DNA of 64,000 bases from a virus. Its lineage: Duplodnaviria; Caudoviricetes. The stretch is from IMG/VR virus record IMGVR_UViG_3300011226_000001, positions 64,001 to 128,000 of that record; one strand, 5' to 3'. Of the stretch, positions 4,706 through 43,066 are shown piece after piece. Position 1 is the stretch's first letter. Every line of letters begins with the position of its first letter. The notes below the pieces were generated by a model. The model saw only the letters and a list, made by a program, of their open reading frames with translations, was not told the origin of the DNA and made no database searches. Both the position numbers and the translations under genes were made by a program.

Positions 4706-4732
4706 TTTGCGTTATCTCCTCAGATAAGTGGT

Positions 4733-6013
4733 TTACAGAGACCAGACGCGGCTTGCGTTTTTACGGTCGTATGTAAGGATAGACTTCTTCAAACTAGCAT
4801 TAACAGTATTGACGGTCGTGAATCCCCACGTAGTGAGTATCTTATTCACATCGTCAAGCCCAGACGACACTGACATGTACGTGGTGCGGTCCATGATAGT
4901 GCCACAATCGACAGCAGCAAACAGCGCTTTCGCAGCAGCGAACTTCTTCGCAGCTTTGTGGTTTTCTTTCTTTTCGAACTTGTCGAAGTCGTCCATGAAC
5001 TCTTTGCGCTCTTTGAAGAACGCCTCAGCTTTCTCTAACTTCTCCGCTTGTTCGGGTTTGAGAGTGCGCGTTGTCTTGCCATACTTCGATACGATCTCGT
5101 TCCAGTGTTTCGCTCGCTCGTTCAGTTCAGCACGTTTGTCCAGCAGCTCTTGATACTCAGGTGAGCGGCGGTCTGCGTACTTCTCGTCACTAAGCAGCGT
5201 CAGATACGGGTCGTCGTCGATTGCTTGCAACTCACGGAAGTTTTCAATTGCACTTCCTTCTTCCCAGTAGACAATGCCCATGACCATAGCGTACATGCTT
5301 TTGCCACGCAGCGCTTTCGACTTGAACTCTTTCGGTGCAGCTTTGAACTCAGGTCGTAACGCTACCTGCGCAAACGGCATCGGATAACCGAGCGGGCTTA
5401 TCATGAATGCGTCGCACATCGTGAACGTTGCTTTTTCATGATTCGTGTTCTGGTAGATGAACACGACAGGCACACCTTCAGGAACTTTCAGTTTCTTCGA
5501 GTAGCCTTCTTCTTTCAGATGAATGAAAGATTGCATGTTGAGCATGTTCGCAGTGTACGCAGCGGGCATCAGCCAGCGACTACCGGCGAAGCTATGACGA
5601 TGCTTGCGGTGATATTCGTTAATCAGTTTGCGGATATACTTGATACCCACACCCTTCTTATCGTTCTCACGCGAGTAGTCTTTCAGGTACACTGCGATAT
5701 CGTGTTGCTTCGGCACACCAAGGCCAAGCTCAAACAACGCAGCGAGACTGTCAGACGAACTCTTTGTTGCAGAGTCACGCACATCACGCACAAGGCGCTG
5801 CACAGTCGCAGAATGAATACGCGGTACGAACGCAGTTGTTATCGTACCACTGCGACGTTGCTCACCACGGTTCGTTACAGTGTGGCGAATCTCAATCGCG
5901 TGTTTCGACTTCTTCAAATAATCGGGGCAGTCAAGTCTCACCAAATATTTAGACTCAGCCACTGACAAGAGCAATTGCTTCTCGTCGTGGCTGAATACAT
6001 GATCATAAAACAT
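4733..6013 (-). CDS. hypothetical protein
   Basis: 426 aa ORF packed in operon. Confidence 0.75.
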   Translation of the reverse strand: MFYDHVFSHDEKQLLLSVAESKYLVRLDCPDYLKKSKHAIEIRHTVTNRGEQRRSGTITTAFVPRIHSATVQRLVRDVRDSATKSSSDSLAALFELGLGVPKQHDIAVYLKDYSRENDKKGVGIKYIRKLINEYHRKHRHSFAGSRWLMPAAYTANMLNMQSFIHLKEEGYSKKLKVPEGVPVVFIYQNTNHEKATFTMCDAFMISPLGYPMPFAQVALRPEFKAAPKEFKSKALRGKSMYAMVMGIVYWEEGSAIENFRELQAIDDDPYLTLLSDEKYADRRSPEYQELLDKRAELNERAKHWNEIVSKYGKTTRTLKPEQAEKLEKAEAFFKERKEFMDDFDKFEKKENHKAAKKFAAAKALFAAVDCGTIMDRTTYMSVSSGLDDVNKILTTWGFTTVNTVNASLKKSILTYDRKNASRVWSL

Positions 6014-6464
6014 TGTATCCCTCTACTGTTTTCGCATCAGTCACAAACTGCGGGTAACCATCTGCTTCAACTGTTTTGAACAGGGAGTCGATGGCCGACT
6101 GGCTCAATGCGTTTTTCTGCACATGCTCCCAAGGAATCGCTACAACCTCGTCGCCAGCATAATCACTAGCAGAAGTATGGGGCATAATTAGTAAACCCAG
6201 CGATATCTTGTGCATTCTACAGAACGCATTAAGTTCTTTTACAGTTTTGTGCAACGCAGCTTGGTTCGCTGCATTTGCTTTGCCAGTGTCTGCGATAGAC
6301 GTCAGGTAATTATAGTTAGCAATGTTCAACAGCATTTGCTGACTGATAACAGTAGGGTCAACGCCGATAGTACCAAGAATAAATTCAGCTATCAGCTTTT
6401 GTGCTTCTTCTTGCGATGACGGCCTGTAGCCGCCGCGACTAATTACTACTTTTGACTTTTTCAT
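6003..6464 (-). CDS. hypothetical protein
   Basis: start re-called at MKKSKV (ATGA overlap with upstream stop, GGAG SD). Confidence 0.7.
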   Translation of the reverse strand: MKKSKVVISRGGYRPSSQEEAQKLIAEFILGTIGVDPTVISQQMLLNIANYNYLTSIADTGKANAANQAALHKTVKELNAFCRMHKISLGLLIMPHTSASDYAGDEVVAIPWEHVQKNALSQSAIDSLFKTVEADGYPQFVTDAKTVEGYNVL

Positions 6465-6844
6465 GATGGCTCCCGAAGATTTGGTGCATAGCTGTTCCAC
6501 ACATTTTCGACGAGTGCTTGCCATTCAGTTTCTGACAAATGCTTGCCCGTGAGCTTGTGGTACTCACGAAAGAATTTCTTAGCGGGCAGTTTACTATCGG
6601 TGGCCCGTGATACATACAGTGCAGCAAGCGGTGGTCTGCCATGCGATATATCGACACGCATGGTTTCGCGCACTAATCCCCACAGCGCATCGTACTGCGC
6701 ACTACTAATCACGGACAGTTGAACGCCGAACACAATCGGCGCTAAGTCAGAGTAGAACACGTGGGTCTTCAATACTGCGGCTGTTAACAGCCGCGCGTAG
6801 AGTTGAGCAAACATGCCTGACAAAAGGATTTCGTTATTTGTCAT
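6461..6844 (-). CDS. hypothetical protein, possible winged-helix fold (GRPPLAALYV motif)
   Basis: 127 aa ORF, ATGA coupling at both ends. Confidence 0.65.
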   Translation of the reverse strand: MTNNEILLSGMFAQLYARLLTAAVLKTHVFYSDLAPIVFGVQLSVISSAQYDALWGLVRETMRVDISHGRPPLAALYVSRATDSKLPAKKFFREYHKLTGKHLSETEWQALVENVWNSYAPNLREPS

Positions 6845-8076
6845 ACAGCAGCATCCAGTTCAGAGTTAGTACCCAAGGTCAGGTTGAAGGTGTCTTGCAC
6901 GTTGGCATGTGCCATTACGCATTCGCTACCGTCTTTCTCGATGAAGACAGGGCCGGTCATGTCACACGCGACGAACATCAGTTCAACACCGTTCGGTTTA
7001 TAGCAGAGCAGACCACGCTTCACATCAGCAGGTGCAATGCCCAGCTTCTTGGCGATGATTGCTTTCGATTCTTTTATGTGCGCTTTCGCTGCGGCCATTT
7101 CTTTCTTAGGCGGCTTAATGAGTTTGATAGTCATTTTGCGCACACGCTTGGTCTGTTCTTTCTCAGAAGCGTAGGTCGGCACAGCAAGTTTGCGCTTCGC
7201 TTTCTTCTCTTTCACTTTCGGGTTCTCAATAGATTTGTCGAGTGACAGCTTGAGATTACCCAGCAGCGTTTGCATCGCAACGTCGTAGAATTTCACGTCG
7301 AGGTCAAGCGCACTCAGTACGCGCTCAATCTGCGCTTTGTTCAGCGTCAACGCACCGTCTTGAATCAGACGTTTCAGCGCGATAGGCATCTGCTTGATGA
7401 ACGTGTCTTGCGTCACGGTCGCGTTCAGTTTGTTCATGGCAGATTGTGCAGCTTTGCGTCCCATGTGCTTAATCACACCCCTACCGCCATGCTTCTTCAC
7501 ATCTTTCCAGTCCATGTCAAACGCTTCGCTCAACATCTTGCGACGGTCTTTCGTAGTCGCGTCGGCGATGGTTGCGTCGATGATGCCCGCCAGTTCAGCT
7601 TTGCGATCAACTTTATCAGACGGCAGCATGTCGATTTCGTCTTTAGACGCGGCGACTTCTGCTTTACGCTCTTTCTTAGAGCGAGTGTCTTTGTTGCGTT
7701 CGCGTGTCGCTTTCACACCGCCTTTCTGCTTCGCAGCTTTCACAGCAGCAGGCTTGCCTGTCTCAGGGTCGATATACACCAAAGAGCTAAAGTCAGGCTT
7801 GATTGCGTCAAGGTCGATTTCGTTGTTACGCAGATCTTTTTGCAGGCGCTTGTTCAGCTTCACGCTGATACCGTCAATCAGAACGTGCTCAGTTTTCGCA
7901 TACGGCGACTCAATCTCTTTCAGAGTTTTGCCAGCAAGCACAATACGCTTCACTGGAATCTGCGGACCTTTAGCGTCGGTGCTATAACCATTAGCGTTCA
8001 CTTTGTTGATGAAAGTGATAGTACCGTCCAGACGACGAACACGGGCATTCAACAGGTTTGCATTTGCGTTTGACAT
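6841..8076 (-). CDS. basic protein sharing N- and C-terminal domains with 8163..9761
   Basis: start MSNANAN after GAGG-loop SD hairpin; Lys-rich. Confidence 0.8.
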   Translation of the reverse strand: MSNANANLLNARVRRLDGTITFINKVNANGYSTDAKGPQIPVKRIVLAGKTLKEIESPYAKTEHVLIDGISVKLNKRLQKDLRNNEIDLDAIKPDFSSLVYIDPETGKPAAVKAAKQKGGVKATRERNKDTRSKKERKAEVAASKDEIDMLPSDKVDRKAELAGIIDATIADATTKDRRKMLSEAFDMDWKDVKKHGGRGVIKHMGRKAAQSAMNKLNATVTQDTFIKQMPIALKRLIQDGALTLNKAQIERVLSALDLDVKFYDVAMQTLLGNLKLSLDKSIENPKVKEKKAKRKLAVPTYASEKEQTKRVRKMTIKLIKPPKKEMAAAKAHIKESKAIIAKKLGIAPADVKRGLLCYKPNGVELMFVACDMTGPVFIEKDGSECVMAHANVQDTFNLTLGTNSELDAAV

Positions 8077-8162
8077 AGTGTGATTCCTCAATCAGCTTAG
8101 TTGTCAGATATGCGGCTCTGTATGAACCGCATCTTGTTTCAGTGTTACAGTGTTACGACAGA

Positions 8163-9761
8163 TTACTTCAGGAGCTTACGCAGCTGGGCAGCAGTCATTT
8201 TGTCTGCTTTGCGCGGCGTAGTCAGACCCGCTTCGACAGCGCGGTCACGCAGTTCGTCTTCGGTCAGGTCTTCGAGGTCTTCGGTTGGTGCGTCGTCAAA
8301 TTCGAAGTCTTCTTCGTCTTCTTCTTCCTCACCGTCTTCGTCTTCGAAGTCAACGTTGTTATCGTCTTCTTCTTCGCCGTCTTCTTCGGCGTCTTCTTCG
8401 CTTTCGCCACTATCGATCACAGGGCTAAAGTCGGTCAGCGTTTTGATATCAGCTTTGCTGTAGACCAGAACGTTGTCGTCTTCGTCTTCTGCGTCAACGT
8501 CGATTACCAGCAGCCCGCCTTTGCTATCGCAGCCCAGGTAAGCAAAAGTCGTATCGCCGTCAGTCAGCATCAGGCCAGGGGCAAGCGCTTCTTCGTCTAC
8601 ACCGAAACGTTCGGCGAGTGCAGCGTGATACTTCGCGGTCACTTTCTTGTTGACCAGTTCGAGTTGTTCCGCTTCGACAGCAACGAACTCGTACTCTTGC
8701 GCATCACCCTCTTCTTCTTCGCCGTCTTCTTCTTCGGCGTCTTCTTCTTCGGCGTCTTCTTCTTCGACTTCTTCCTCTTCTTCTTCTTCGACTTCTTCCT
8801 CTTCTTCTTCGACTTCTTCTTCTTCGCTTTCATCAGCGACGATTTCGAAGTCGGACAGCTTGTCGGCGCCGAATGATTTGAAGCCGTCAGTGTCTGCGCT
8901 ATACATCAGCGCTTTACCTGCGTGTTTCGCAGATTCACCCACGAACACGAACTCAGCATCACCGCTAGTCAATACAGTACCCGGCAACAGGTCGTTCGCA
9001 TCGTCGAGGTCGAACGCAGCTTTGATTGCTTTCGCCAGCACTTTGCCAATCTTCTTAGACGCGAGCTTGGCGGCACGTTTCGCAACAGCTTCGTCCAGCT
9101 CAGGAGCAACAGCAGTGTCTTTCACAGGTTTCGCGTATTGCAGGCTCAACGTGATCTGCATTGTGTTGTTCTCTTCGGCGTATTCAGCACCGTAAGCAAC
9201 AGACACAGCGTTAGCGATCGGCGTTTTGTTGTCTGCGCACACTTTCGCAATTTCGCTGTTTTCAAGCAGCGCCACCAGACGTTTTGCCACAGTATCGGTC
9301 AGCGCTTCGTCTACAGTTTCGATTTCAACTGCGGGTTTAGCTTTGCCGCCTTTGATGATAGCGTGTGCCAGATTCTGATAATCTTCGGACTGTTCTTCGG
9401 AAGATTTACGACGAACTTTCGGTTCTTTCTCTTTCGATACTTTGCCAGCAGTCTTCTTACCAGAAGTCTTAGGCGCTTTCTCTTTCACTGCGTCTTTCTT
9501 GCCGGTAGCTTTCTTGCCGGTAGCTTTCGCTTCTTTCAGCTTAACGTAACCTTCGCCTGTGTCTTCGAGCTGGCTCATGTTCATACGTTCGATCTCACGG
9601 AAGTGAGAACCCTCTTTGATAACGCAGCGGGTTGCGATACGTTTGCTCTGACCTTTCACCTTGTAGCCGGACGCGATAGCATCTTCGATTTTAGATTTGG
9701 TGCCGTTCAGCAGGATGATAGTTTTGCCAACCAGGTTAGAGTTAGTTTCGATACGTGCCAT
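8163..9761 (-). CDS. acidic protein with duplicated beta domain and C-terminal HEH/Rho-N-like module
   Basis: 532 aa ORF directly after early promoter and SD hairpin; poly-E tracts. Confidence 0.85.
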   Translation of the reverse strand: MARIETNSNLVGKTIILLNGTKSKIEDAIASGYKVKGQSKRIATRCVIKEGSHFREIERMNMSQLEDTGEGYVKLKEAKATGKKATGKKDAVKEKAPKTSGKKTAGKVSKEKEPKVRRKSSEEQSEDYQNLAHAIIKGGKAKPAVEIETVDEALTDTVAKRLVALLENSEIAKVCADNKTPIANAVSVAYGAEYAEENNTMQITLSLQYAKPVKDTAVAPELDEAVAKRAAKLASKKIGKVLAKAIKAAFDLDDANDLLPGTVLTSGDAEFVFVGESAKHAGKALMYSADTDGFKSFGADKLSDFEIVADESEEEEVEEEEEEVEEEEEEEVEEEDAEEEDAEEEDGEEEEGDAQEYEFVAVEAEQLELVNKKVTAKYHAALAERFGVDEEALAPGLMLTDGDTTFAYLGCDSKGGLLVIDVDAEDEDDNVLVYSKADIKTLTDFSPVIDSGESEEDAEEDGEEEDDNNVDFEDEDGEEEEDEEDFEFDDAPTEDLEDLTEDELRDRAVEAGLTTPRKADKMTAAQLRKLLK

Positions 9762-9818
9762 GATTAATACTCCTCAGTATATGTGTTTTGTATGCGACGC
9801 ACTATTGCGTCTGTATCT

Positions 9819-9872
9819 ATTATAGCATAGGTCGCTTTCAGATAGCAACCACGATTTTGTCCAGATTTCTGC
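9819..9872 (-). promoter_or_regulatory. phage early promoter: CTGGACAAAAT box, TTGCTA, TG-extended TATAAT
   Basis: - strand CTGGACAAAAT (9864-9854), TTGCTA (9848-9843), TATGC-TATAAT (9829-9819). Confidence 0.8.
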
Positions 9873-9924
9873 ATACTTCGCAGATAGCAGGGCAGCTATA
9901 TTTCACTACCCTGCTCGTTATTGC

Positions 9925-11247: not shown

Positions 11248-11460
11248 TTAGTAGCCGCTCGACATAAGCAGTCTGATACAGTCTTGTCGGCTGTAGTCGT
11301 CTACGTCGTCGTTTTCGACAAAGACTAGACCATTCTCTAACAGTGCATTGCGTAGGTCGTCGTCTGACCAATCGTCATAACGTGCTTCACGCGCATTATA
11401 ACGTTGTTCTTCGGAGGCAGCTATCTGACCGTTGATTTCGTCTTGCGTCGATCTTCCCAT
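11248..11460 (-). CDS. small acidic protein with HEH-like module
   Basis: TGATG coupling to upstream gene. Confidence 0.6.
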   Translation of the reverse strand: MGRSTQDEINGQIAASEEQRYNAREARYDDWSDDDLRNALLENGLVFVENDDVDDYSRQDCIRLLMSSGY

Positions 11461-11921
11461 CAGTAGCCTCTGCACTCGCACACTTGCTGGTGACAGTTAC
11501 GACAGACGCCATCTTCATCGAGATTCTGCCACCCATTTTCGTCAGTCTGATCGTCATCGTTCAGATTGCCAGGACGTTCTTCCATAGTGTCGAGATCTTC
11601 GTCGTCATGTTCACATTCACAATCTTCGACACGCTGATCACATTCGGGACATGTACCGAAGTCTTCTGGGTCTTCTTCGAAGTCATCGTCAGGGTCAGCA
11701 GCAATTGTCTGGACAGACGCGACCTCAGCTTCAACTTCTGGCGACATTTCGGTCATCAGAGTACGGAACTCGTCGAACGTCAGACCGACTTGACGCAACG
11801 CAGTTTCAATCAAATGCTTGCCCTCGTCTTCGTCATCATGACCAAAGACTTCAACTACACCCGCGAGTGCGCCACCCATGAGAATGACCTGAGCGTCTTT
11901 GCTTACATCGTTAAACTTCAT
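11460..11921 (-). CDS. acidic protein with two Cys clusters (CPEC..CEC, CRNC..CEC)
   Basis: 153 aa ORF, GGAGG SD in hairpin. Confidence 0.75.
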   Translation of the reverse strand: MKFNDVSKDAQVILMGGALAGVVEVFGHDDEDEGKHLIETALRQVGLTFDEFRTLMTEMSPEVEAEVASVQTIAADPDDDFEEDPEDFGTCPECDQRVEDCECEHDDEDLDTMEERPGNLNDDDQTDENGWQNLDEDGVCRNCHQQVCECRGY

Positions 11922-12058
11922 AACAGCCTCCTGTTTGTTTTGGGTTCTTTCTGCAACGCACTAAAGGTACGTTCTAAAAAGGACCCGCACCGTCACGCCT
12001 CTGCGAGGGGCGCCTCGTTGGGGTGAGCATTTCTGGACGGGCGAGCCAAACTGGATTG

Positions 12059-12250: not shown

Positions 12251-12936
12251 TAGAAGTATTTGTCCTTCGCATCAGGTGCGAGTGGCAGTTCAATGTCAGA
12301 ATCGACGCCCACTTCAAGGCTATGTACCTCGCTAACTTCTTCGTCTGTCAGCGTCACTGCCCAGTCTTCTGCGCGATACCCCCAACTGCTAATCATCATA
12401 CGGTCAGTAGCAGGGTCGATGGTTTCCAGATCGTGAAACTCGTCGTCGAAGTCTTCATCTTCATCTTCGTCTTCATCGTCCCACTCGTCGTCTTCCATGT
12501 TAGAGTCAGCACACTCGACCACGACTGCTTTAAGCTCACGCACTAGATCAGCAACGATATCACAGTCAATGCGAATCTCGCTAATCATAGGGCCTTCTAC
12601 ATCGAACATGGTGCGAACGTCTACAGGCACAGAGAGACTAACAGCAGCGCCTTGCGCACGTAACATCAGGCACACTGAGTAGTAGTTCATGATTGTGTCC
12701 AGAGACACGAACTTGCGAACGCGATGCACCACCAGATGTTCAACGGTGCGAGTACCATCACGCCACAGCACATCGACTTCTTTCACGTCAGGTGATTTGT
12801 GCGCTTTTTCAAATGCACCATATAACTTGCTTGGCGTGAACTCAGCAAGCAAGTCATCGTCGTACACAAAAGCAAAATGATCAGGATTGACTTTGCTTCG
12901 TTTCAGTAGAGTGTAGTCAGGTTTCATGTTATTCAC
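12250..12936 (-). CDS. hypothetical protein
   Basis: 228 aa ORF with acidic tract. Confidence 0.7.
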   Translation of the reverse strand: MNNMKPDYTLLKRSKVNPDHFAFVYDDDLLAEFTPSKLYGAFEKAHKSPDVKEVDVLWRDGTRTVEHLVVHRVRKFVSLDTIMNYYSVCLMLRAQGAAVSLSVPVDVRTMFDVEGPMISEIRIDCDIVADLVRELKAVVVECADSNMEDDEWDDEDEDEDEDFDDEFHDLETIDPATDRMMISSWGYRAEDWAVTLTDEEVSEVHSLEVGVDSDIELPLAPDAKDKYF

Positions 12937-13390
12937 CTTTAAGGTTCATAGTGTAGTTTTTCTTGCTGTAACGGAAGCAAACTTTATCAACCGTACCAGC
13001 AAGCCCGTCATAACCAATCATGAACAGGCGTCCTGAACAAATCGCTAAGTCCATCAGCGAATGACCTTCTTCGTTCGCTTCGGCGACAGTAAGAATAGCA
13101 TCGCAGATTTCCATCTGCTTTTCTTTGTCGATATCGTTCGCAATGAACTCGCCGCCGTCAGTCGATTCATTCAGGTTGAATGAGATCTTGCATGGCTTGC
13201 TGTTGTGAACGAAACGCATCTCAGGAATCGGGCCACCGAGTTGGTTACACACGGTCAGATACAACCGAAGACCCGCAGCACAAACGTCGATCCATTCAGG
13301 TTTCAGTTCGATAACTTTCTGGACAGCGGCGTCCATCATGCGGTCCTGCAATTCTATATCAGCTAAAGTTGCTTTCGTTTCGTTCAGCAT
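12929..13390 (-). CDS. hypothetical early protein
   Basis: 153 aa ORF following promoter and GAGG-loop SD hairpin. Confidence 0.75.
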   Translation of the reverse strand: MLNETKATLADIELQDRMMDAAVQKVIELKPEWIDVCAAGLRLYLTVCNQLGGPIPEMRFVHNSKPCKISFNLNESTDGGEFIANDIDKEKQMEICDAILTVAEANEEGHSLMDLAICSGRLFMIGYDGLAGTVDKVCFRYSKKNYTMNLKGE

Positions 13391-13443
13391 TTTGTTGTCT
13401 CCTCAGACATAAGTTAAAAAAGCGCAGCACAAGCTACGCTTTT

Positions 13444-13497
13444 AGTATATCACAGGGAGGCATCAGATTGATAGCCTCATTTTGTCCAGATTTTTGC
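13444..13497 (-). promoter_or_regulatory. phage early promoter
   Basis: CTGGACAAAAT box, core 31 nt upstream of TATACT (TGTGA-extended). Confidence 0.75.
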
Positions 13498-20352: not shown

Positions 20353-20811
20353 TTAGTTGTCGATTAGTTCTTTTACTGTACGTGGTCGTGGCGCATACTG
20401 ACATTCTTTGCCTGTAACGTAGCGACCAGAGTGCGGGCCCGTAGTAATCAAAATTACCAAGAGCAGATCACGATGCGTCACAACGACGCCCTCGCATTTG
20501 TTCGCCGTGTCATAATCAAACACAACATCGACGAACTGATTTTCGAACTCACCCTTCGCACAGATAGGTGAGTGCTTTGCGTAGTTCTCAAGGAAGTGAC
20601 GCGACACAAACAGGTCTTCATCTTCTTTGAAGTAACGACGCGGAAGATTCTTTGCGTCAATCTTCCATATCTCATTGTATGGTTGATCGTTGTCTTGACG
20701 CACAATCACTGCCGGGTAGATTCCCCAGCGTGACTTGAGAGCAATCTTCTGGCCCTCGTCACGTCCCCTCGAAGGGAACGTGGTTGCTGTTATGCCTTGA
20801 ACAACTCCCAT
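20353..20811 (-). CDS. hypothetical phage protein, apparent internal duplication of a small beta domain
   Basis: 152 aa ORF, GGAG SD. Confidence 0.7.
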   Translation of the reverse strand: MGVVQGITATTFPSRGRDEGQKIALKSRWGIYPAVIVRQDNDQPYNEIWKIDAKNLPRRYFKEDEDLFVSRHFLENYAKHSPICAKGEFENQFVDVVFDYDTANKCEGVVVTHRDLLLVILITTGPHSGRYVTGKECQYAPRPRTVKELIDN

Positions 20812-20823
20812 GAGCGTTGTCTC

Positions 20824-21378
20824 CTAAAACAGAGGCAGATGTTTGTACCGCTCAGGAATATCGTTCTTGCCATAAGCCTGAGCAGGGAAGAGACCGTACT
20901 GCCGGGCTGTCTGCGACACTTCACCGTGAGTACACGAATAAGCGAAGCTGGTCAGCTTACCGTCTAAGAATACGGCTTGATCTTCCATGAACATGTGACG
21001 TAAGAAGTACGGTACGTTAAGCGACTCACCGTTGTCGAAGAAACCGAACTGCTCGGTCAGTTGCTCTTTCGTGTACGCAAACGGCACGAAGAAGCGAATG
21101 CCACCTACAATGGATTCGAGTTCCTGATCGTGCAGAGCCTGCACTAACATCATGCGTTGCTCAACAGTCGGGTTAGTGTCAGCAGACTTCGGGTAGAGCG
21201 AGTCAGTGAGATCACGAACGAGCTTTGCAGCACGAGGTTCAGCGTCATGGCAAGTGAAGATAGATGCGCGATTGAACATGTCCAGTTCAACAAGAGCTTT
21301 GAACCCAACTTCCTTGTTGGGTGCATCTACGGCCATAGCGATGTGGTTCAGAATATAAAAGTAACCGTAGCTTTTCAT
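20824..21378 (-). CDS. hypothetical protein
   Basis: 184 aa ORF, AAGGA SD. Confidence 0.75.
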   Translation of the reverse strand: MKSYGYFYILNHIAMAVDAPNKEVGFKALVELDMFNRASIFTCHDAEPRAAKLVRDLTDSLYPKSADTNPTVEQRMMLVQALHDQELESIVGGIRFFVPFAYTKEQLTEQFGFFDNGESLNVPYFLRHMFMEDQAVFLDGKLTSFAYSCTHGEVSQTARQYGLFPAQAYGKNDIPERYKHLPLF

Positions 21379-21756: not shown

Positions 21757-21809
21757 ATTATATCATAGAAGCGCCTCAGATAGAAGCGCGAGTTTGTCCA
21801 GTTATTTGC
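21757..21809 (-). promoter_or_regulatory. phage early promoter
   Basis: GCAAATAACTGGACAAAC box, core 30 nt upstream of TATAAT (TATGA-extended). Confidence 0.8.
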
Positions 21810-22992
21810 TTTCTAGCGACGAGATAGCGTATGCAATCGCCAGCGCTTCACGATTCGTTGCTACAGCGCGATTGATACCGCACGTGTGGCGAGATACGAG
21901 AGTGATAGCAAAACGACGATCACCGAACTCATGCTTGCTGTCCAGCTCGTGCCAGATCTGTTGGGCATGAGTGAGAATAACCTGCTTGCGTGGTGCTTTC
22001 GGCATCGCTTTCTTTTGCTTCTTCATGTGCGGGTGTTGAGACTTAGGAATGTCCGGCACAGGCAGACGCACAGTAGGCAGATCGATTTCAACTTCCATAA
22101 GCGAGGTGCCTGTAATCCATTCGGCCTCGTCGTAGTCAACGCCGTCGTCAGGATGACCGTACTTCTGGTAGAACACGTCACGCAATTCATCGTCGTCGTT
22201 ATCGAAGTCCTCACGCGTCATAACCTCGTCACAGTCGCATTCGCAATCAAATTCGTCTTCGTCGCAAGTACAACCACGAGGCGTAGCGTTCGGCCCAATA
22301 AGGTTAAGACGCTCACACAGATCAGCCAGAGTGTCGAAGTCCATATGACGAACGCTATCGTATTCTGCAGGACGGCCTTCAACAAGTTTGCGCTCAAACT
22401 CAGCGCGGTATTCGTCAGACCACATGTTGTTTGTGCTGATACTGCCTGTATCTGCATGTGGGTTGTACAGGCTAAAGTGACGAGCGTACCCTTCGTCTTT
22501 ACCCTCAGTCTGCAACGCAATGATAAACTGAGGCAGACGTGTGTGACTGACAACAGGCGAATCTTTGACGAGAAGATTCTCAAGACCGTGCTGCGCGATC
22601 ACCCAGATAAGTGAACGTGTGATCAGCTCACAGCATTCGTTGTTATGTTTCGGCCAGAAGCCTTTACCAGCAGTGCGTGGGTCAGTGCACCACATAGTCA
22701 GCGCCATGTTAGACACAGCATTGAAGAATGTTCCGCGCCACTTCTTATTCAGCAGATTATCGAACGCGTAAATATCATCGGCAGGAAGCAGCAGCGTACC
22801 GTCACCTGAGAACGTAATCTCGTCCAGAATGCGATACGTTGCCTCTACGCTCGGTTCGCTGTCTTCGTACTGCAACGCCAGACTCGGCGCGAGCACAGTG
22901 TTTGCGATAGCGCGTAAAGCATCACGTACTTCGACACTGCCTTTCTCAAACAGGCGGCGGGCAACGACAGTGATCTCAGTTTGTTCGGTCAT
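21802..22992 (-). CDS. hypothetical protein with acidic Cys cluster
   Basis: 396 aa ORF, CTCDEDEFDCECDC. Confidence 0.75.
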   Translation of the reverse strand: MTEQTEITVVARRLFEKGSVEVRDALRAIANTVLAPSLALQYEDSEPSVEATYRILDEITFSGDGTLLLPADDIYAFDNLLNKKWRGTFFNAVSNMALTMWCTDPRTAGKGFWPKHNNECCELITRSLIWVIAQHGLENLLVKDSPVVSHTRLPQFIIALQTEGKDEGYARHFSLYNPHADTGSISTNNMWSDEYRAEFERKLVEGRPAEYDSVRHMDFDTLADLCERLNLIGPNATPRGCTCDEDEFDCECDCDEVMTREDFDNDDDELRDVFYQKYGHPDDGVDYDEAEWITGTSLMEVEIDLPTVRLPVPDIPKSQHPHMKKQKKAMPKAPRKQVILTHAQQIWHELDSKHEFGDRRFAITLVSRHTCGINRAVATNREALAIAYAISSLESK

Positions 22993-23294
22993 TTCTTAGG
23001 TCCTTCCTCAAGGTCAATATAGAGCGCGATCATTTCTTCAAGATTGCGGTTTGCTTTTTTCAACGCCATGAGTTTCAACAGCGTTGCTTTGCAGACGGGT
23101 AGCGGGTACTTATCTTCCGTGTACCAAGTACGTGCAAGATGGCGTACAGCGGCATCTGGGCGAGGCTCAACAGCAACAGCCAGACGCAGATTGAGTAACA
23201 TTTGTTTGAACGTTTCCCAATCTGCGGGAGTTGATGCAGCTTTGTTGATCAGGGTGCGTTGCGCATTGAACGCGGACATATCTTTCTTTGGCAT
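22989..23294 (-). CDS. hypothetical protein
   Basis: 101 aa ORF, translationally coupled. Confidence 0.7.
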   Translation of the reverse strand: MPKKDMSAFNAQRTLINKAASTPADWETFKQMLLNLRLAVAVEPRPDAAVRHLARTWYTEDKYPLPVCKATLLKLMALKKANRNLEEMIALYIDLEEGPKK

Positions 23295-25183: not shown

Positions 25184-25240
25184 ATTGTAGCATAGGGCGA
25201 TCGTCTGAAACAAGCCTTATTTTGTCCAGTTATTTGCAGA
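25184..25240 (-). promoter_or_regulatory. phage early promoter (overlaps the uvsE 3' end)
   Basis: GCAAATAACTGGACAAAAT box, TTGTTT, TATGC-TACAAT. Confidence 0.8.
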
Positions 25241-31300: not shown

Positions 31301-32710
31301 TTAGCACATACCGCTACCGAAACCACAACGACCATTACCACCAACATAACCGCAACGCTGGGAGGTGTATTCACAACTATCAGGATAGCCTCTAGGTTCT
31401 TCTTTCTTCGCCTTCTTCACTTTCTTCGCTTTTACCTTCTTGGCTTTCACTTCTGGTACAGGCTCTTTGCGTGACCAGTCGAAGTACAGGTTGCCGTCCA
31501 TGTGGAATACCATTTCGGTGTATTCTTCTTCGTCTTCGTTCGGTTCGTATGAAGACGCTTTCAGATATGCGAAGCTGTTACCGAGGTCGGCGCTGCGATG
31601 CGTGAAGCAAGACGGACAACCAGTAGTAAACGTATCGTCGAAGCCGGGCATAGTCTCGTCGAAAAGGTCATCGTAGTAGCTGCCGTCAAAGATAGAATCA
31701 AACAGCTTGATCAGCTCAGGCTTCTTCTTCAACTTCTTCTCAGCCTCCATAACGTCACGCTGTGAGCCGCGTGTAGCGTTGCGCCACTCTTCATGCGCCA
31801 TGCCATACTTACGCAGTTCTTTGCTCAACTTCTTGTTGTCGTAGTCAACACGGAACACAACGTCGATCCACGGGTTTGCTTTCATCAGTTCGTTCGCCTG
31901 ACGGAACTCCCATTCGATGTTGTCGATGTTCTGTTTGTTGATAACGAAGTTGATATGGAAACTCAGCTTGCGACCTAACTGGCGGCGGAAGCGCACAAGG
32001 TCATCAAGAGTCCACGTATAGTTGACGCCCATGATCTTGTTTGCTTTCTCACGGTCAAATGAGTGCAGACTGATATTCAGATGCGACAGTTTGCTTTCCA
32101 GCATCACGTCTGTATTCAGATCGAGGAACGTCATCGTCTGATTATGCTTTTCAAGGAACTGACCGTTAGAAGTCAGACCCACTTTGTGCATACCAGCTTC
32201 TGCACGAATACGGTCAATCGTTTCGAACAGATACTTCATGCGAAGCGTAGGTTCACCCCCAGAGATTGAGATGTGGTCGACACGATGGCCGTGCGTTTTG
32301 ATTGCAGCCATCAGATTGTCTTGCCACTCTTTCTGCGGCGCTTTGTTTTCCATTTCTTTCTCAGGGCAGAAAGCACAATCAGCGTTACAGGTCACAGGCA
32401 GGATAGCAGTGAAGTTGCGCAGTTCGTTAGGGATCTCACGCTCTTTCTTTTTCTTCTTGCCGTACTTACCTGCTTCCCACTTGTCGAGAAGTGCAGACTG
32501 ATCGTGTTTGATAAGTTTCAAACACTCGGCGGGGTACCATGAAACACGACCATGATGTTTGACGTGCAGTGCGTACTCGTCTTTTTCATCCTGACGACCA
32601 ACGACGATTGCTTCTTCACCTGCACCATCAAAATGCTTCATGGTCACAGGCAGAACGTTGGAGATACGAACAAGGTCGGTCAGGCGGAAAGTGTGCTTAA
32701 TCTTTTTCAT
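31301..32710 (-). CDS. radical SAM enzyme with N-terminal SH3-like domain and C-terminal Cys/Gly-rich tail
   Basis: CNADCAFC (CxxxCxxC), ISGGEPT, LTSNG, LNISLHS; first gene after an early promoter. Confidence 0.88.
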   Translation of the reverse strand: MKKIKHTFRLTDLVRISNVLPVTMKHFDGAGEEAIVVGRQDEKDEYALHVKHHGRVSWYPAECLKLIKHDQSALLDKWEAGKYGKKKKKEREIPNELRNFTAILPVTCNADCAFCPEKEMENKAPQKEWQDNLMAAIKTHGHRVDHISISGGEPTLRMKYLFETIDRIRAEAGMHKVGLTSNGQFLEKHNQTMTFLDLNTDVMLESKLSHLNISLHSFDREKANKIMGVNYTWTLDDLVRFRRQLGRKLSFHINFVINKQNIDNIEWEFRQANELMKANPWIDVVFRVDYDNKKLSKELRKYGMAHEEWRNATRGSQRDVMEAEKKLKKKPELIKLFDSIFDGSYYDDLFDETMPGFDDTFTTGCPSCFTHRSADLGNSFAYLKASSYEPNEDEEEYTEMVFHMDGNLYFDWSRKEPVPEVKAKKVKAKKVKKAKKEEPRGYPDSCEYTSQRCGYVGGNGRCGFGSGMC

Positions 32711-32759
32711 ATACATATCCTCATGTAAGTAGCTAAACGAGTGTCTAGCGTTCATCTCT

Positions 32760-32812
32760 ATTATAGCATAAATCGAGCCAGTCTTGAATGGCTGTTTCGT
32801 CCAGAAATATGC
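32760..32812 (-). promoter_or_regulatory. phage early promoter
   Basis: CTGGACGAAA box, core 30 nt upstream of TATAAT (TATGC-extended). Confidence 0.75.
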
Positions 32813-36202: not shown

Positions 36203-36607
36203 TTATTCGTCGCGTTCAAGCAGATCGCCGTGAACTGCTTCATCGAAAGGCACGTACTGTTTGCACTCAGTGCCTTTAGGGTAGACGAACATTGTTGTAT
36301 CAGAACGATGTTCATACGTGTCAGGTTCAATGACACACAGCGCTTCGATTGCTGCGTTATCGACAGCACGGAAGATTGGAATCCACTCGTCTGTCTCATA
36401 CAGATACGTCCACTCAGTATCGGCCCAACCCTCAAGATCTGAGAGGTTAGCAATATGCGACTGCTGAATCACTTGCTCGGTCGCGGAGAGTGCAACGTAA
36501 CGAACTTTCTGCGGGGTGAAGCCTAAGAACGGGCTGTCACGCAGTTCGAGTTCATTCTCGATTTCTTTCAGCGTGTACACTCGGCCGCGTTGTGGATATT
36601 GTTTCAT
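36203..36607 (-). CDS. hypothetical early protein (cassette 4)
   Basis: 134 aa ORF after conserved spacer. Confidence 0.75.
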   Translation of the reverse strand: MKQYPQRGRVYTLKEIENELELRDSPFLGFTPQKVRYVALSATEQVIQQSHIANLSDLEGWADTEWTYLYETDEWIPIFRAVDNAAIEALCVIEPDTYEHRSDTTMFVYPKGTECKQYVPFDEAVHGDLLERDE

Positions 36608-36671
36608 GTTAAGCTCCTCAGCTTATGGGTTATGTTGACAGCAGGCTCTCGTAAGAACCTGCGAGCAACAA

Positions 36672-37025
36672 TCACCGTTTAGGCATACACGCTTCGACTG
36701 CACCAGCGATGCGCTGCAACGTTGAGAACGAATCTTTCTGGCGCTCAATCTGAATCACTGCATCACCGTGTATGATTTCGAAGTCTTCCACGATATCTTC
36801 ACGCAGAACTTCGGACGGCATCAGTATACGCACAGTGCTAATACCGAATGCGTTGTTGCCACCAGCGCGATAAGCAACGTCGATGTGACGACCTTTAATG
36901 TGATGACGAAACTCAAGATCACCGCGCGACACACAGAAAGAGATCGCGTTGCATACTTGCAAGAAAGCGTTATTGCTCAGGTCATCAAAAGCGCGGGCGT
37001 CGATAGGTAATTCAGTTGCTGGCAT
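36672..37025 (-). CDS. hypothetical early protein (cassette 3)
   Basis: 117 aa ORF. Confidence 0.75.
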   Translation of the reverse strand: MPATELPIDARAFDDLSNNAFLQVCNAISFCVSRGDLEFRHHIKGRHIDVAYRAGGNNAFGISTVRILMPSEVLREDIVEDFEIIHGDAVIQIERQKDSFSTLQRIAGAVEACMPKR

Positions 37026-37087
37026 GTTAAGCTCCTCAGCTTATGGTTTGATTTTCAAAGGGCACTCGTAAATGCCCTTCACAAATC

Positions 37088-37405
37088 TTAGCGGTGGTGC
37101 GCTACTTTCAGATACAGACAAGTAGAGGGGAAATGCTCAGTGCCATTCTCAACGGCGTCACGACAGCGAATGTGCTCATGCGTTTCATGACGAGCGATCA
37201 GCATGTTAAGCATCGACTGATCGAAGCGTGACATTGCACCCACGATGTTTGAGTCACCCATCAGACGCAGCGCTTTAACGTCGCTGAATGTTATGTCTCT
37301 GTTTTCGGCGAGACCCAGATACGCAGGAACAACGCCGTTACCGATAGAGACTTCCAGAGTAGTCATTTCTGGGAAGATGAAAGTCAGAGTAGTAGATGAT
37401 GACAT
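37088..37405 (-). CDS. hypothetical early protein (cassette 2)
   Basis: 105 aa ORF. Confidence 0.75.
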   Translation of the reverse strand: MSSSTTLTFIFPEMTTLEVSIGNGVVPAYLGLAENRDITFSDVKALRLMGDSNIVGAMSRFDQSMLNMLIARHETHEHIRCRDAVENGTEHFPSTCLYLKVAHHR

Positions 37406-37473
37406 GTTAAGCTCCTCAGCTTAGGTTGTTTGGATTTTCATAGAGCACTCAGCGAATGCTCTACACAAATCAC

Positions 37474-37905
37474 TTACAGTTCAGGCAACCAGTAGTTCAG
37501 GCGATCTACGAAAGTTTCGTACATGCGCGGGTTACCGTTTTCAACAGTGACATGCTCAAGCATTTCATCGTCAATATCAGAAACAACCAACGAATACGAA
37601 TTGGTCCAGTCGTCGTACATGTTGTCTTCATGTGGCACGGTCAGTATGATTTCCCAAACGCCCTTGTCAGTTGGTTCATCTGGGTCGCGATTAACATAAC
37701 CAATACGAACATGAATCAGGCGGTCACTGATATTTTCAGCAACATCGTTAGGCACGTCGCCACCGTCATATGCGTCCAGCGTAACTTCAATATCGTCACG
37801 GCCAAGTGCGGCGATAAGATTGTCACGCAGGTTTTCCATATGCGCAACAGTCAGGTTAGCAGTAAAGTCAGCAGGCGTTTTCAGATCAGCGATTGAAATA
37901 GTCAT
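37474..37905 (-). CDS. acidic hypothetical early protein (cassette 1)
   Basis: start re-called at MTISIA after SD hairpin. Confidence 0.75.
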   Translation of the reverse strand: MTISIADLKTPADFTANLTVAHMENLRDNLIAALGRDDIEVTLDAYDGGDVPNDVAENISDRLIHVRIGYVNRDPDEPTDKGVWEIILTVPHEDNMYDDWTNSYSLVVSDIDDEMLEHVTVENGNPRMYETFVDRLNYWLPEL

Positions 37906-37951
37906 AATAAGCTCCTCAGCTTGTGTTGTAATGAGCACTGCGCTCACGTTT

Positions 37952-38008
37952 ATTATAACATAGGTCAGTCTCTGAATGAAACGGCTATTTTAGCCAGTTA
38001 TTTGCAGA
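37952..38008 (-). promoter_or_regulatory. phage early promoter
   Basis: GCAAATAACTGGCTAAAAT box, core 31 nt upstream of TATAAT (TATGT-extended). Confidence 0.75.
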
Positions 38009-39846: not shown

Positions 39847-39925
39847 TGTATATCTCGCATTGTTGTTTGTGTGCGTGATATTTACAGAAATGAAAAAGGG
39901 CCACCAGCAATGGCAGCCCTTGAGT

Positions 39926-40150: not shown

Positions 40151-40404
40151 TAGTCCTCCGAGCCGTCTTGATCTTCACGCGCCGCAGCTTCTTCGTCTAA
40201 GCGATCATAGTGCGCCTGACGGTCAGCTTCCATCTCGTCGGCAACACGCGCATCATTTTGATAGTCGAGAATCATATCTATCAGTTCTTCACGATCTGGC
40301 GCGTCTTGCTCAGGCGCCAAGTCGTCTAACAGGCCGAGACGCTCTGCTTCGTTGCACAGGTCGGTCAGTTGCATTGCATTCATTTGATCACGGTCAAGGC
40401 TCAT
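40144..40404 (-). CDS. small acidic protein with HEH/Rho-N-like module
   Basis: MQLTDLCNEAERLGL...DREELIDMIL. Confidence 0.65.
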   Translation of the reverse strand: MSLDRDQMNAMQLTDLCNEAERLGLLDDLAPEQDAPDREELIDMILDYQNDARVADEMEADRQAHYDRLDEEAAAREDQDGSEDYC

Positions 40405-40452
40405 AGCATTCTCCAAATAGAAAAGCCCCGCGACATGCAGGGCGTTGGTTGT

Positions 40453-41046
40453 TTACAGATAGACTTGCATTGCGTTCTTGCCGTCAGAGATAACAGCAAG
40501 CTGGCTCAGGCGATGGCGGAAGATAGCGTAAGGCATACCTTCTTCGCGTTTGCCGCGTGTAATCAGAGACACAACCTTGAAGTTCATGCGCGTCATACGA
40601 CGTTTAAACGTCGCAGTGTTGAACAGACCACACACGTATTGAGCGATACACACGCGAGCCTCATAAGGCAGCGTCACACTGTATTCACTGCTCAGGTCAG
40701 ACACGATGTTGAAGCGAGGCACGTCGGCCAGCAGTCTAGGCTGCTCAACTTCAATCGCCATGCTTTCAGGCTCGTCGTACTGATACTCACGAATCAGTGT
40801 CGCGTCGATAGGCGTCTTGTCTTTGAACACGATCTTAACGCGATCTTTATCGACAACATGCAACATGAGATCAGTCAGTGCATAGGCTTTTGCGCTGCCC
40901 TGCTCTTTGCCTGTAGTGTACAGCACGGTGATCTCACACTCGCAGAACGCTTCGAAGTGAGGGCGTTTAAGCAGAATCTCGCCGGTCGCCAGAGTAGTGT
41001 CGTTTGTTTTGATGAATGCAACCATGGTCATAGTCGTATCTCTCAT
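40453..41046 (-). CDS. hypothetical protein
   Basis: 197 aa ORF. Confidence 0.7.
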   Translation of the reverse strand: MRDTTMTMVAFIKTNDTTLATGEILLKRPHFEAFCECEITVLYTTGKEQGSAKAYALTDLMLHVVDKDRVKIVFKDKTPIDATLIREYQYDEPESMAIEVEQPRLLADVPRFNIVSDLSSEYSVTLPYEARVCIAQYVCGLFNTATFKRRMTRMNFKVVSLITRGKREEGMPYAIFRHRLSQLAVISDGKNAMQVYL

Positions 41047-41093
41047 TTGATTTGATAATGAGCGGCGCCGTAACGCCGCAGTTTGTTTAGTGC

Positions 41094-41588
41094 TTACAGC
41101 TTGATTTCAATCTCAACGCCTAAACGTTGTTTCAGGTGCGCTACGATTTCTTCTACAGTGAAGTCGTCGAGTGACTTCGTTTCTCTGTTAGCGATCTTGC
41201 GCACAGCGCTCGGCGTGTAGGCGAACTGCGTATGACGATCACGAAATGCTACAGGGATTGTCGTGTCGAGTGTATGATACATGCGATTGTTACGCATTGC
41301 ACGAATAGACGCAGCGAGTTCAGGCGGCAGACGCTCCATGCCTACGTCGATAGTCTCACGGTCGATGCTGCTCCAGCTCAGTCTGGCCCAGTTTTGTTGC
41401 GTGTCAGACTGCAACAGGTCAACGTTAATGCGCGTCAGGTGGTACAAGTTATCAGAGCCATCGACAGATGCGATAACGCCGATGACGTTATCGATACGCT
41501 TGCGATTGAAGCCACGCATCAGAAATTGTTTGTCGTACAGATCAGCGACGCTCATGCGAAGAATCAGATATTGGTTTTTCATAGTCAA
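41094..41588 (-). CDS. hypothetical protein
   Basis: 164 aa ORF. Confidence 0.7.
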   Translation of the reverse strand: MTMKNQYLILRMSVADLYDKQFLMRGFNRKRIDNVIGVIASVDGSDNLYHLTRINVDLLQSDTQQNWARLSWSSIDRETIDVGMERLPPELAASIRAMRNNRMYHTLDTTIPVAFRDRHTQFAYTPSAVRKIANRETKSLDDFTVEEIVAHLKQRLGVEIEIKL

Positions 41589-41630
41589 ACCTCAGGCAGA
41601 AAGTAGAAATGGGGCCGAAGCCCCATAAGA

Positions 41631-41876
41631 TTAACGCACGTCTTCGAGTTCGCCGTCAGTGTCAGGCAGCTTCTCCGCCAAGAAGCGACGCAGATCATCT
41701 TCATGGCCGATGATTGCAACTTCGGGATAGCCGTTCGGGCCGACAGTCTGCGTAACAGTCAGGCGCAGGTCATACGGCTTGAGCCAGTCGTTAGAAGACT
41801 CGCCATCTTCAAATACGATTTCAGTCGGCGATGCTACGTCTGCGATAAGGTCGAGTGTGATTTGTTTCTCTGACAT
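41631..41876 (-). CDS. small acidic early protein
   Basis: 81 aa ORF after promoter, hairpin terminator downstream. Confidence 0.7.
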   Translation of the reverse strand: MSEKQITLDLIADVASPTEIVFEDGESSNDWLKPYDLRLTVTQTVGPNGYPEVAIIGHEDDLRRFLAEKLPDTDGELEDVR

Positions 41877-41923
41877 GATATTGCCTCTTTCTTGATTGAG
41901 CGCGTCATTGCGCTAGAGATTAC

Positions 41924-41976
41924 ATAGTACGCCATTGAGCGCCTAAACTCAATGGCGATTTTGTCCAGATTTGTGC
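41924..41976 (-). promoter_or_regulatory. phage early promoter with perfect 10-bp inverted repeat in the spacer
   Basis: CTGGACAAAAT, TACTAT; CGCCATTGAG/CTCAATGGCG at 41930-41957. Confidence 0.7.
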
Positions 41977-41979
41977 TGA

Positions 41980-42600
41980 TTAGAGATACACGTTCAGGCG
42001 AGCGAGCAACGGGAAGTCGCTACCGTCTTGCTTAACGCCGTTGTCTTTCGACAGTTCGATAACATGTGAGGTGCGTTCTGTGATTTGCGCCACATACTTC
42101 TCTTTGTTGCGTCGATGCTGGTGAATGTCGGTCACTGAAATATCTTGATCGTGCAACACAAGCACCAGCTCTGTCAGGCTGATCATGCCGCCTTTATATT
42201 GAATCAGACGCTCGCGCACGTCATGGTTCAGACACAACATGTTCGGTTCGTTGCCGGATGCGTGGTTAGATACGCAGAAGCGAGGGGCAGCAGCCACATC
42301 TTCGGGGCACATAAGATATTGCTGTGCGCTTTCGGTCAATACGTCTTTAGGCAACACTGACGGTGGCATTGCGTGAACGTCGGTCAGTGGATCGAACTCA
42401 ACACGCACGTTTGCTTCATCAACAGGCGTCAGGGTGATGTTGCGTACGGCGAATGCGTTACCTAACCCCGTGTTCGCATACACGATGAAGATTTCAGATT
42501 CCACCAGCTCCTGCACTTGCTTAGAAGCGATAGTGAATGAACCAGCAGCCAGAGAAGCGTAAGAGCGTTTAACAAAGAAAGTAGTGATGTGCATAGGCAT
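41980..42600 (-). CDS. hypothetical protein
   Basis: 206 aa ORF. Confidence 0.7.
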   Translation of the reverse strand: MPMHITTFFVKRSYASLAAGSFTIASKQVQELVESEIFIVYANTGLGNAFAVRNITLTPVDEANVRVEFDPLTDVHAMPPSVLPKDVLTESAQQYLMCPEDVAAAPRFCVSNHASGNEPNMLCLNHDVRERLIQYKGGMISLTELVLVLHDQDISVTDIHQHRRNKEKYVAQITERTSHVIELSKDNGVKQDGSDFPLLARLNVYL

Positions 42601-42662
42601 GGTCGTGTCTCTCTATAGAAGTAAGAGAAGCGGGGCCGTAACCCCGCAGTCATTGTTAGTGT

Positions 42663-43013
42663 TTACAGCAGGTCGAGTTCTTCGATTGCGGCAGAGAGCT
42701 GGTCTAGGTCAACAGTGCTGAACGTATAGTCATTCATATCTGGGTAGCCTGCATAGTGCAGAACATAATTCTCGTCTTCGCCTGCTTCGTCAGTGTACGG
42801 CAGATCTAAGAAGAAGCCAAACTCGTCACTGACTTCATCTTCTTCGGCATCATAGCCAACAACCATAACAATCAAATCATCTTCGGCACCGTCAGTAACG
42901 ATAACGCGAGCGTCGGTACGTTTCATTTTCGCGTTAAGCGTGTCAGCGAGTTCTTGCAACATCTGACGATCAGATTCAGTGAATACGCGACCAGCTTGTT
43001 TGACTTCGTTCAT
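42663..43013 (-). CDS. acidic hypothetical early protein
   Basis: start re-called at MNEVKQ after GAGG-loop SD hairpin. Confidence 0.75.
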   Translation of the reverse strand: MNEVKQAGRVFTESDRQMLQELADTLNAKMKRTDARVIVTDGAEDDLIVMVVGYDAEEDEVSDEFGFFLDLPYTDEAGEDENYVLHYAGYPDMNDYTFSTVDLDQLSAAIEELDLL

Positions 43014-43066
43014 TGTATGCTCCTCAGCATTAGTTGTATGTGCTACGTCATGTAGCGTCTGCATAT

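Follow-up and report, generated by a model that had tools for sequence, protein, structure and literature searches.

The window analysed here, 64,000 nucleotides of DNA corresponding to bases 64001-128000 of the IMG/VR virus record IMGVR_UViG_3300011226_000001 (Caudoviricetes), contains a set of short hairpins at ribosome-binding sites, each of which carries the core of the Shine-Dalgarno (SD) sequence in an exact four-nucleotide loop just before a start codon. These hairpins are kept at orthologous genes in 13 relatives, where stems that differ do so by double-sided compensations or through G.U intermediates, and this orthologous conservation, together with the compensatory changes, therefore indicates selection on RNA structure, as an earlier note made from the letters of this DNA had proposed. 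Our preferred reading, given moderate confidence, is that the hairpins act independently of any dedicated factor within a compact translation-start module, in which they would display and insulate the SD sequence beside a standby site for the ribosome. The module belongs to operons of this jumbo-phage clade that are dependent on the host RNA polymerase and probably early.

All 13 sequences listed in the earlier note were found letter for letter on the minus strand, at the coordinates given there. Ten of them, the core sites, have perfect stems of 5-6 bp on a GAGG loop, 0-6 nt before the ATG of open reading frames (ORFs) of 105-1000 amino acids (Table 1). The variant at 32712 stays a member, better read as UACAUG-AGGA-YAUGUA, with a closing pair that is G.U here and G-C in 2910A and Alexandra, two of the relatives. 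The remaining two variants, at 58558 and 62373, had to be dropped, since AD1, SNU28 and Alexandra have lost their pairing with no compensating change; the SNU20 copy of the former is unchanged and the latter keeps 5 pairs by means of one G.U. Three members absent from the earlier list were added (20818-20831, 23002-23013 and 45220-45235), the first of them tentatively, because it is weak and overlaps the end of the upstream gene. The 86-aa ORF which directly follows the third, with its 6-bp GGAG-loop hairpin, had been missed by the gene caller.

The diversity of the stems was slightly misjudged at first reading: the window has seven distinct stems instead of six unrelated sequences, and free variation is limited to their outer 3-4 pairs. 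Inner C-G and U-A pairs are common to 8 of the 10 core sites, because the U, A and G in question belong to the extended SD sequence (UGAGGAG), and in the same proportion of core sites GGAG spans the junction of loop and stem. Loops of the types GAGG, AAGG, UAGG, AGGA and GGAG occur among the members, so that the only invariant letters are A-G-G, the SD core itself. The geometry is uniform, with an exact 4-nt loop, a stem of 4-7 bp and a loop end 5-12 nt before the ATG. The opposite arrangement was also seen on the minus strand of the window, in the genes starting at 40404 and 48446, whose GGAG is sequestered as part of the 3' arm in a predicted hairpin of 6 bp.

Since the SD consensus is partly self-complementary (CUGAGGAG) and the extended SD sequence by itself already supplies the two inner pairs, palindromes could arise around it by chance. 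This was assessed by scanning the whole genome, in which 292 perfect tetraloop hairpins with stems of at least 5 bp were found. GAGG is the commonest loop among them (11 on the minus strand and 12 on both strands, against a mean of about 1.1 per loop type), and 10 of those 12 are the ribosome-binding sites described here, the other 2 being what chance would supply. Stems of at least 5 bp stand on 10 of 100 start-proximal GAGG (those lying 2-16 nt from called starts) and on 2 of 1086 others (Fisher p = 6.8e-10, or 6.4e-7 once the four copies sharing AAGCU/AGCUU are collapsed). Moreover, stem lengths at the start-proximal sites are bimodal: 71 have no pair, 9 have one, 7 two, 2 three, 1 four, 6 five and 4 six. 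The enrichment, this distribution, and the conservation with compensation in 13 other genomes refute an origin by chance, whose probability we consider negligible. The second commonest tetraloop on perfect stems of at least 5 bp in the genome is UUCG (TTCG in the DNA), with 8 copies; two genes, with starts at 62369 and 41582, are preceded by C(UUCG)G hairpins that lie just upstream of the leaders and are probably terminators.

The source genome is complete (268,224 bp, with direct terminal repeats), and its closest relatives in public databases are jumbo phages of Erwinia and Dickeya that belong to the genus Alexandravirus, including pEa_SNUABM_1 and _17 (88-93% identical) as well as AD1, Alexandra, 2910A and phB78. 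A search of IMG/VR with an exact 20-nt leader word gave matches only in contigs of 260-267 kb belonging to the same clade. The syntenic 45-kb region was compared in seven Alexandravirus genomes. Beyond the genus, the comparison took in Y3 (Sasquatchvirus) and SNUABM_7 (Snuvirus), and the orthologue set of the 532-aa gene comprised 14 genomes, including the Yersinia phage fHe-Yen9-02, SNUABM_5 (Rivsvirus), JA13 (Salmondvirus) and Yoloswag. Conservation thus reaches over 14 genomes and seven genera, with protein identity down to 32%.

Each of the seven Alexandravirus genomes has 11-13 SD-tetraloop hairpins at orthologous genes, and in the orthologous alignments the hairpin is the best-conserved segment of the leader: its identity is 95%, whereas the leader upstream of it and the first 30 bases of the coding sequence stand at 84-86%. 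The hairpin at 8081 is identical across 10 genomes, and the one at 4712 retains 5-6 bp in the 10 relatives for which the whole region was compared, as well as in SNU5 and Yoloswag. At the orthologues of 9767, the five inner pairs are formed in every one of the 14 sequences, two pairs have changed on both sides, and the covariation score of the set exceeds those of all 500 shuffles. The two-hairpin leader of this 532-aa gene is found again in fHe-Yen9-02, SNUABM_5, JA13 (with a UAGG loop) and Yoloswag, the proteins being only 32% identical at the lowest.

Further replacements that preserve pairing were found at other sites. At 37028, five relatives have UGUUCU/AGAACA (in phB78 a 5-bp GUUCU/AGAAC), with three pairs changed on both sides; at 37909, ACGCU/AGCGU is present in Alexandra, Y3 and SNU7; and at 36610, 2910A and SNU20 show G.U variants. 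The hairpins kept by Y3 and SNUABM_7 bring compensations of their own, namely AGUCU/AGACU at the 13396 orthologue in Y3, where the outer pair is flipped on both sides, AUGCU/AGCAU at the 36610 orthologue in Y3, and UUCUU-GAGG-AAGAA at the 23002 orthologue in SNU7. The loop itself is AAGG at 37408 in SNU20. The cassette of 43017 offers a whole series, from AUGCU-GAGG-AGCAU to AUGCU-AAGG-AGCAU, AUGCU-AAGG-GGCAU (with a U.G pair) and UGCC-AAGG-GGCA (with C-G). Stems end sharply at 5-6 bp in eight Alexandravirus genomes, where the sixth pair is formed in 36% of cases and pairs 7-8 in about 10%, which is background; in the distant genera they extend up to 7 bp. These pair counts were taken from ungapped windows centred on the loop, since a MAFFT alignment of all the hairpins mis-registered the AGGA and AACAG groups. 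In the loop-centred set, the pairing of pairs 1-4 in 100% of sequences, and of pair 5 in almost all, results from the way the sequences were chosen and is therefore not evidence; the independent evidence lies in the orthologue sets.

The same comparison bears on a reading at the level of DNA, in which the repeats would mediate the shuffling of promoter, leader and ORF, as proposed for the promoter-early stem-loop elements (PeSLs) of T4-type phages, the RNA hairpin being incidental. In PeSLs, recombination joints map to the stretch from the -10 box to the ATG (PMC2839356). In this genome, four small genes share the AAGCU hairpin and no paralogy was detected among them, while the AUGCU and UACAUG-AGGA cassettes sit before different ORFs in different phages, the latter cassette including the first codons. 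In addition, the 143-aa gene (37474-37905, minus strand) is absent from AD1, 2910A and phB78, where its promoter and leader run directly into the gene that follows; the joint falls within AAGCUGAGGAGCUU, the hairpin sequence that both share. The occurrence of one leader on unrelated ORFs points, on sequence comparison, to PeSL-like modular shuffling. Nevertheless, it is only in RNA that pairing is maintained through G.U intermediates and double-sided compensations, and this points to RNA rather than DNA; most stems are unique and hence unfit as mutual homology; hairpins stand before the 1000-, 532- and 411-aa genes in fixed synteny, without shuffling; and the SD sequence is always on the coding strand. 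That the hairpins exist for the sake of DNA exchange is accordingly held to be very improbable.

The hairpins form part of a leader with a recurrent order: a sigma70-like extended -10 promoter or an upstream stop codon, a GC-rich hairpin (hairpin 1), an A/C-rich single strand, the SD hairpin and the ATG. Phages of this group encode sigma factors but lack an RNA polymerase (PMC7412058). Six promoters of this kind were found in the whole genome, all of them inside the window, where almost all genes are on the minus strand; an SD-loop hairpin follows five of the six, and all the hairpin genes lie in operons fed by them. The earlier statement that four core sites, plus 32712, come after an early-type promoter is correct as a pattern match, early timing being inferred. 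The promoters came from the specific extended -10 pattern, and a generic sigma70 scan requiring a -35 box gave no enrichment over shuffles. All six also carry a CTGGACAAAAT-like element, CTGGAC(A/G)AAA(T/C), which is CTGGCTAAAAT at 37952-37997. It precedes the -10 hexamer by about 33 nt, a distance too great for a -35 box, and may be a factor-binding or UP-like element.

An upstream stem-loop is present in every leader, and hairpin 1 starts at about the predicted transcription start; that at 9796 is conserved in the orthologues, with changes in its loop. Between the small genes its place is taken by an intercistronic element of about 40 nt and about -18 kcal/mol, with GAUUU/AAAUC as outer pairs and an inner helix of 7-10 bp that covaries in relatives. 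Its loop is alike between copies, and it is found in Y3 and SNUABM_7 too; attenuation, RNA processing or stabilisation of the 3' end are possible roles for it. The stretch that leads to the SD hairpin is nearly free of G: the 12 nt on its 5' side consist of 45% A, 30% C, 21% T and 5% G, as compared with 21% G in other leaders. In minimum-energy folds the unpaired spacers measure 3-15 nt.

As regards energetics, the recurrent hairpins are weak, at -1.4 to -6.1 kcal/mol, and the duplexes of the SD sequences with the anti-SD reach -6.1 to -10.3 kcal/mol. UGAGGAG pairs with the 3' end of 16S rRNA over seven positions, one of them a G.U, the rRNA end used for these duplexes being the generally known sequence. 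Partition functions computed on contexts from -60 to +40 around the starts gave the 4-nt SD core a mean unpaired probability of 0.93 in 11 hairpin leaders, compared with 0.35 in 275 other SD genes, of which only 3% exceeded 0.8. When either arm was replaced in silico by its complement, the probability dropped to 0.04-0.81, so that in these calculations the hairpin keeps the SD core from capture by other structure. Compensation between stem length and G+C content, which would be a sign of tuned stability, was not significant (Spearman -0.16, p = 0.27).

According to the explanation preferred here, the small hairpin would form on transcription and lock the G-rich SD core in an unpaired loop, where it would escape capture by other parts of the mRNA, whichever ORF follows. 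The 30S subunit would dock on the adjacent single strand as a standby site, nucleate on the loop and unzip the weak stem; the helix of UGAGGAG with the anti-SD is the more stable of the two. As the 3' arm must turn into the single-stranded spacer between SD and AUG, the hairpin would exist only before initiation. Such a module would be self-contained, and is thus proposed to travel with promoter-leader cassettes that become fused to unrelated ORFs.

Several points weigh against this explanation. The high unpairedness of the loop follows almost by construction from the geometry of the hairpin, and the four bases of the tetraloop cannot form the full helix with 16S rRNA without opening of the stem, so that display may be less helpful than modelled. 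The spacers also fall short of the 16-18 nt reported to be optimal for standby tails, and within the same operons some two thirds of the leaders have no hairpin at all. Moreover, display alone leaves the strict tetraloop geometry, the near-invariance of single hairpins across genera and the restriction to one block of the genome without explanation, and each of these would also fit a specific ligand.

It is on these last features that the idea of an operator is built, that is, of a site for a trans-acting RNA-binding protein, either an early or middle product of the phage, comparable to RegA, gp32 or gp43 of T4 or to the MS2 coat protein, or a host factor, which would recognise the tetraloop and the shape of the stem and switch a set of early genes on or off together. 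Besides the uniform geometry, single hairpins are conserved across genera above their flanks and the coding sequence, they are confined to one block of about 40 kb fed by the six promoters, and only some leaders carry them, as would be the case for a regulon. However, the invariance of A-G-G is already explained by the ribosome, the rest of the loop varies, and no candidate binding protein was identified; the CsrA, RegB and RegA families had no match in the complete genome (none for RegB, PF10715, at E <= 1), and Rfam gave 0 matches above the gathering score in the window. An operator of this type is judged unlikely. A similarly doubtful proposition is that AGG-tetraloop operators, across at least seven genera, serve a dedicated switch, whether a phage or host protein or a phage-induced change in S1 or the 30S subunit, that shuts off or protects a subset of early mRNAs.

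The earlier note had gone further in regarding the hairpin as a recognition or protection tag for an RNA-binding protein or RNase, with CsrA/RsmA and T4 RegB in mind, and this part of it was not supported, given that only A-G-G is invariant and that no homologue of CsrA, RegB or RegA was found in the phage. The hosts Erwinia and Dickeya have RsmA, and the leaders resemble CsrA/RsmA targets in having a short hairpin over the SD sequence with G-G-A at or near the loop. Nevertheless, here GGA straddles the junction of loop and stem and is absent from the AAGGGG orthologues, and elsewhere there is one GGA per leader (as read from the printed leaders, with no formal count), not two or more. As for RegB, early-gene SD sequences often contain GGAG here as well, but it is not universal, being absent at the GAGGAA, GAGGCU and AAGGGG sites. 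The AAGGGG orthologues without GGA or GGAG, together with the single GGA per leader, argue against CsrA/RsmA and RegB as general ligands.

A role in mRNA stability was also considered, the hairpin shielding the A/U-rich flanks of the ribosome-binding site from RNase E, acting as a protective 5' stem-loop after processing in the spacer, or serving as a RegB-like site. RNase E prefers single-stranded A/U-rich bases, and the stems are built of such bases; they lie 3-15 nt past a strong hairpin, where processing would leave the SD hairpin near the new 5' end; and the position of GGAG across the loop-stem junction in most core sites would suit a RegB-like cut. On the other hand, the stems, at -1.4 to -5 kcal/mol, are too weak for good protection, hairpin 1 is already a strong 5' structure, and the case for a RegB-like site meets the missing GGAG motifs and the lack of a RegB homologue mentioned above. 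A stabilising function is, in our estimation, distinctly unlikely.

The SD-loop leaders are a variant of two known kinds of element, the structured or standby ribosome-binding sites and the early promoter-leader cassettes. CA-rich single-stranded tails beside a stem-loop at the ribosome-binding site strongly raise translation by ribosome standby (PMC5934652), and the standby site of tisB consists of a single strand and a 5' stem-loop (PMC6690012). The MS2 coat and tisB sites thus resemble the present leaders in having a stem-loop with a C/A-rich single strand on its 5' side and, for tisB, an additional 5' stem-loop. Here the stem-loop is made up of the SD core in the loop, the extended SD in the inner pairs and the SD-AUG spacer as 3' arm, and the adjacent unstructured C/A-rich segment is present, though only 3-15 nt long. 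Yet in MS2 and tisB a stable stem, inhibitory in effect, hides the SD sequence or the start codon, and in these leaders the SD lies in the loop and the stem is weak, so that the likeness is one of mechanism rather than of strict membership in the standby class. Furthermore, this is a standard module with shorter spacers at a dozen genes, not a single-gene device.

With the PeSLs of T4-type phages the leaders share a repeated sigma70-like early promoter, a stem-loop, an SD sequence and a start codon before small ORFs of unknown function (PMC2839356, PMC4122927), as well as the exchange of cassettes at the leader, the same leader being found on different ORFs among relatives. In a PeSL, however, the G/C-rich stem-loop surrounds the promoter boxes and functions as a terminator or attenuator, and an SD sequence in its loop is not described; here two stem-loops lie downstream of the -10 hexamer, the second with the SD sequence, none was seen between the boxes, and the hairpins are also found before large, syntenic, conserved genes. 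The translation-competent cold form of the E. coli cspA mRNA has its SD sequence exposed in a loop between weak A-U/G.U helices (PMC9947658), much as the SD sequences here are exposed amid unstable helices of this kind. It differs in being a single large host leader, with a large loop and a temperature switch, and not a repeated tetraloop hairpin of 14-18 nt.

With about a dozen of these sites per genome in 14 genomes, nature has here replicated many times over an instance of RNA structure under selection at the ribosome-binding site. If display plus standby proves true, they would amount to a portable module of about 50-60 nt which makes translation independent of the downstream ORF, a property sought by synthetic biologists and one that would explain how shuffled cassettes of ORFan genes can be expressed. 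If a protein reads the hairpins instead, this would be a new translational regulon of early genes in a little-studied clade of jumbo phages used for the biocontrol of fire blight and soft rot. In either case, the sites supply natural compensatory variants and stem-breaking targets for direct tests.

Table 1. SD-loop hairpins, promoters and upstream hairpins of the leaders (window coordinates; stems and loops as RNA)
Feature	Coordinates	Strand	Remarks
SD hairpin UUAUCU-GAGG-AGAUAA (DNA arm AGATAA)	4712..4727	-	1000-aa gene (1703-4705); -3.2 kcal/mol
SD hairpin UGAUU-GAGG-AAUCA	8081..8094	-	precedes 411-aa gene (6841-8076)
SD hairpin AUACU-GAGG-AGUAU	9767..9780	-	precedes 532-aa gene (8163-9761)
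SD hairpin AACAG-GAGG-CUGUU	11922..11935	-	abuts ATG of 153-aa gene (11460-11921)
SD hairpin UGUCU-GAGG-AGACA	13396..13409	-	precedes 153-aa gene (12929-13390)
SD hairpin UGUUU-UAGG-AGACA, one G.U (added, weak, tentative)	20818..20831	-	152-aa gene (20353-20811); 6 genomes; -0.3 kcal/mol
SD hairpin CCUU-GAGG-AAGG (added, 4 bp)	23002..23013	-	precedes 396-aa gene (21802-22992)
SD hairpin UACAUG-AGGA-UAUGUA, G.U closing pair	32712..32727	-	precedes 469-aa gene (31301-32710)
SD hairpin UAAGCU-GAGG-AGCUUA	36610..36625	-	precedes 134-aa gene (36203-36607)
SD hairpin UAAGCU-GAGG-AGCUUA	37028..37043	-	precedes 117-aa gene (36672-37025)
SD hairpin UAAGCU-GAGG-AGCUUA	37408..37423	-	precedes 105-aa gene (37088-37405)
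SD hairpin AAGCU-GAGG-AGCUU	37909..37922	-	precedes 143-aa gene (37474-37905)
SD hairpin AUGCU-GAGG-AGCAU	43017..43030	-	precedes 116-aa gene (42663-43013)
SD hairpin GUUAUU-GGAG-AAUAAC (added)	45220..45235	-	abuts ATG of 86-aa ORF (44959-45219); 5 genomes
Sigma70-like extended -10 promoter (TGnTATAAT) with upstream CTGGACAAAAT element	9819..9864	-	sequence match; activity and early timing inferred
Sigma70-like extended -10 promoter	13444..13489	-	pattern match
Sigma70-like extended -10 promoter	25184..25229	-	pattern match; the only one with no SD-loop hairpin after it
Sigma70-like extended -10 promoter	32760..32804	-	pattern match
Sigma70-like extended -10 promoter	37952..37997	-	pattern match
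Sigma70-like extended -10 promoter	43067..43112	-	pattern match
Hairpin 1, GC-rich, about 7 nt after the -10 hexamer	9796..9811	-	followed by 15-nt A/C-rich spacer (9781-9795)
Hairpin 1 of the 13396 leader	13418..13443	-	
Intercistronic bipartite stem between small genes	36629..36675	-	
Intercistronic hairpin 1, bipartite: outer GAUUU/AAAUC, inner helix of 7-10 bp	37050..37087	-	inner stem covaries in relatives
Intercistronic hairpin 1, second copy, different inner stem	37432..37473	-	
Hairpin 1 of the 43017 leader	43042..43056	-	followed by 11-nt G-free spacer

With respect to the genes downstream, no function could be assigned from PHROGs or Pfam to any of the ten proteins. This includes the 411-aa and 532-aa proteins (unknown or nothing in PHROGs and Pfam); these two neighbours, both led by an SD-loop hairpin, show a weak mutual similarity of 29% over 52 aa (E ~8e-4).

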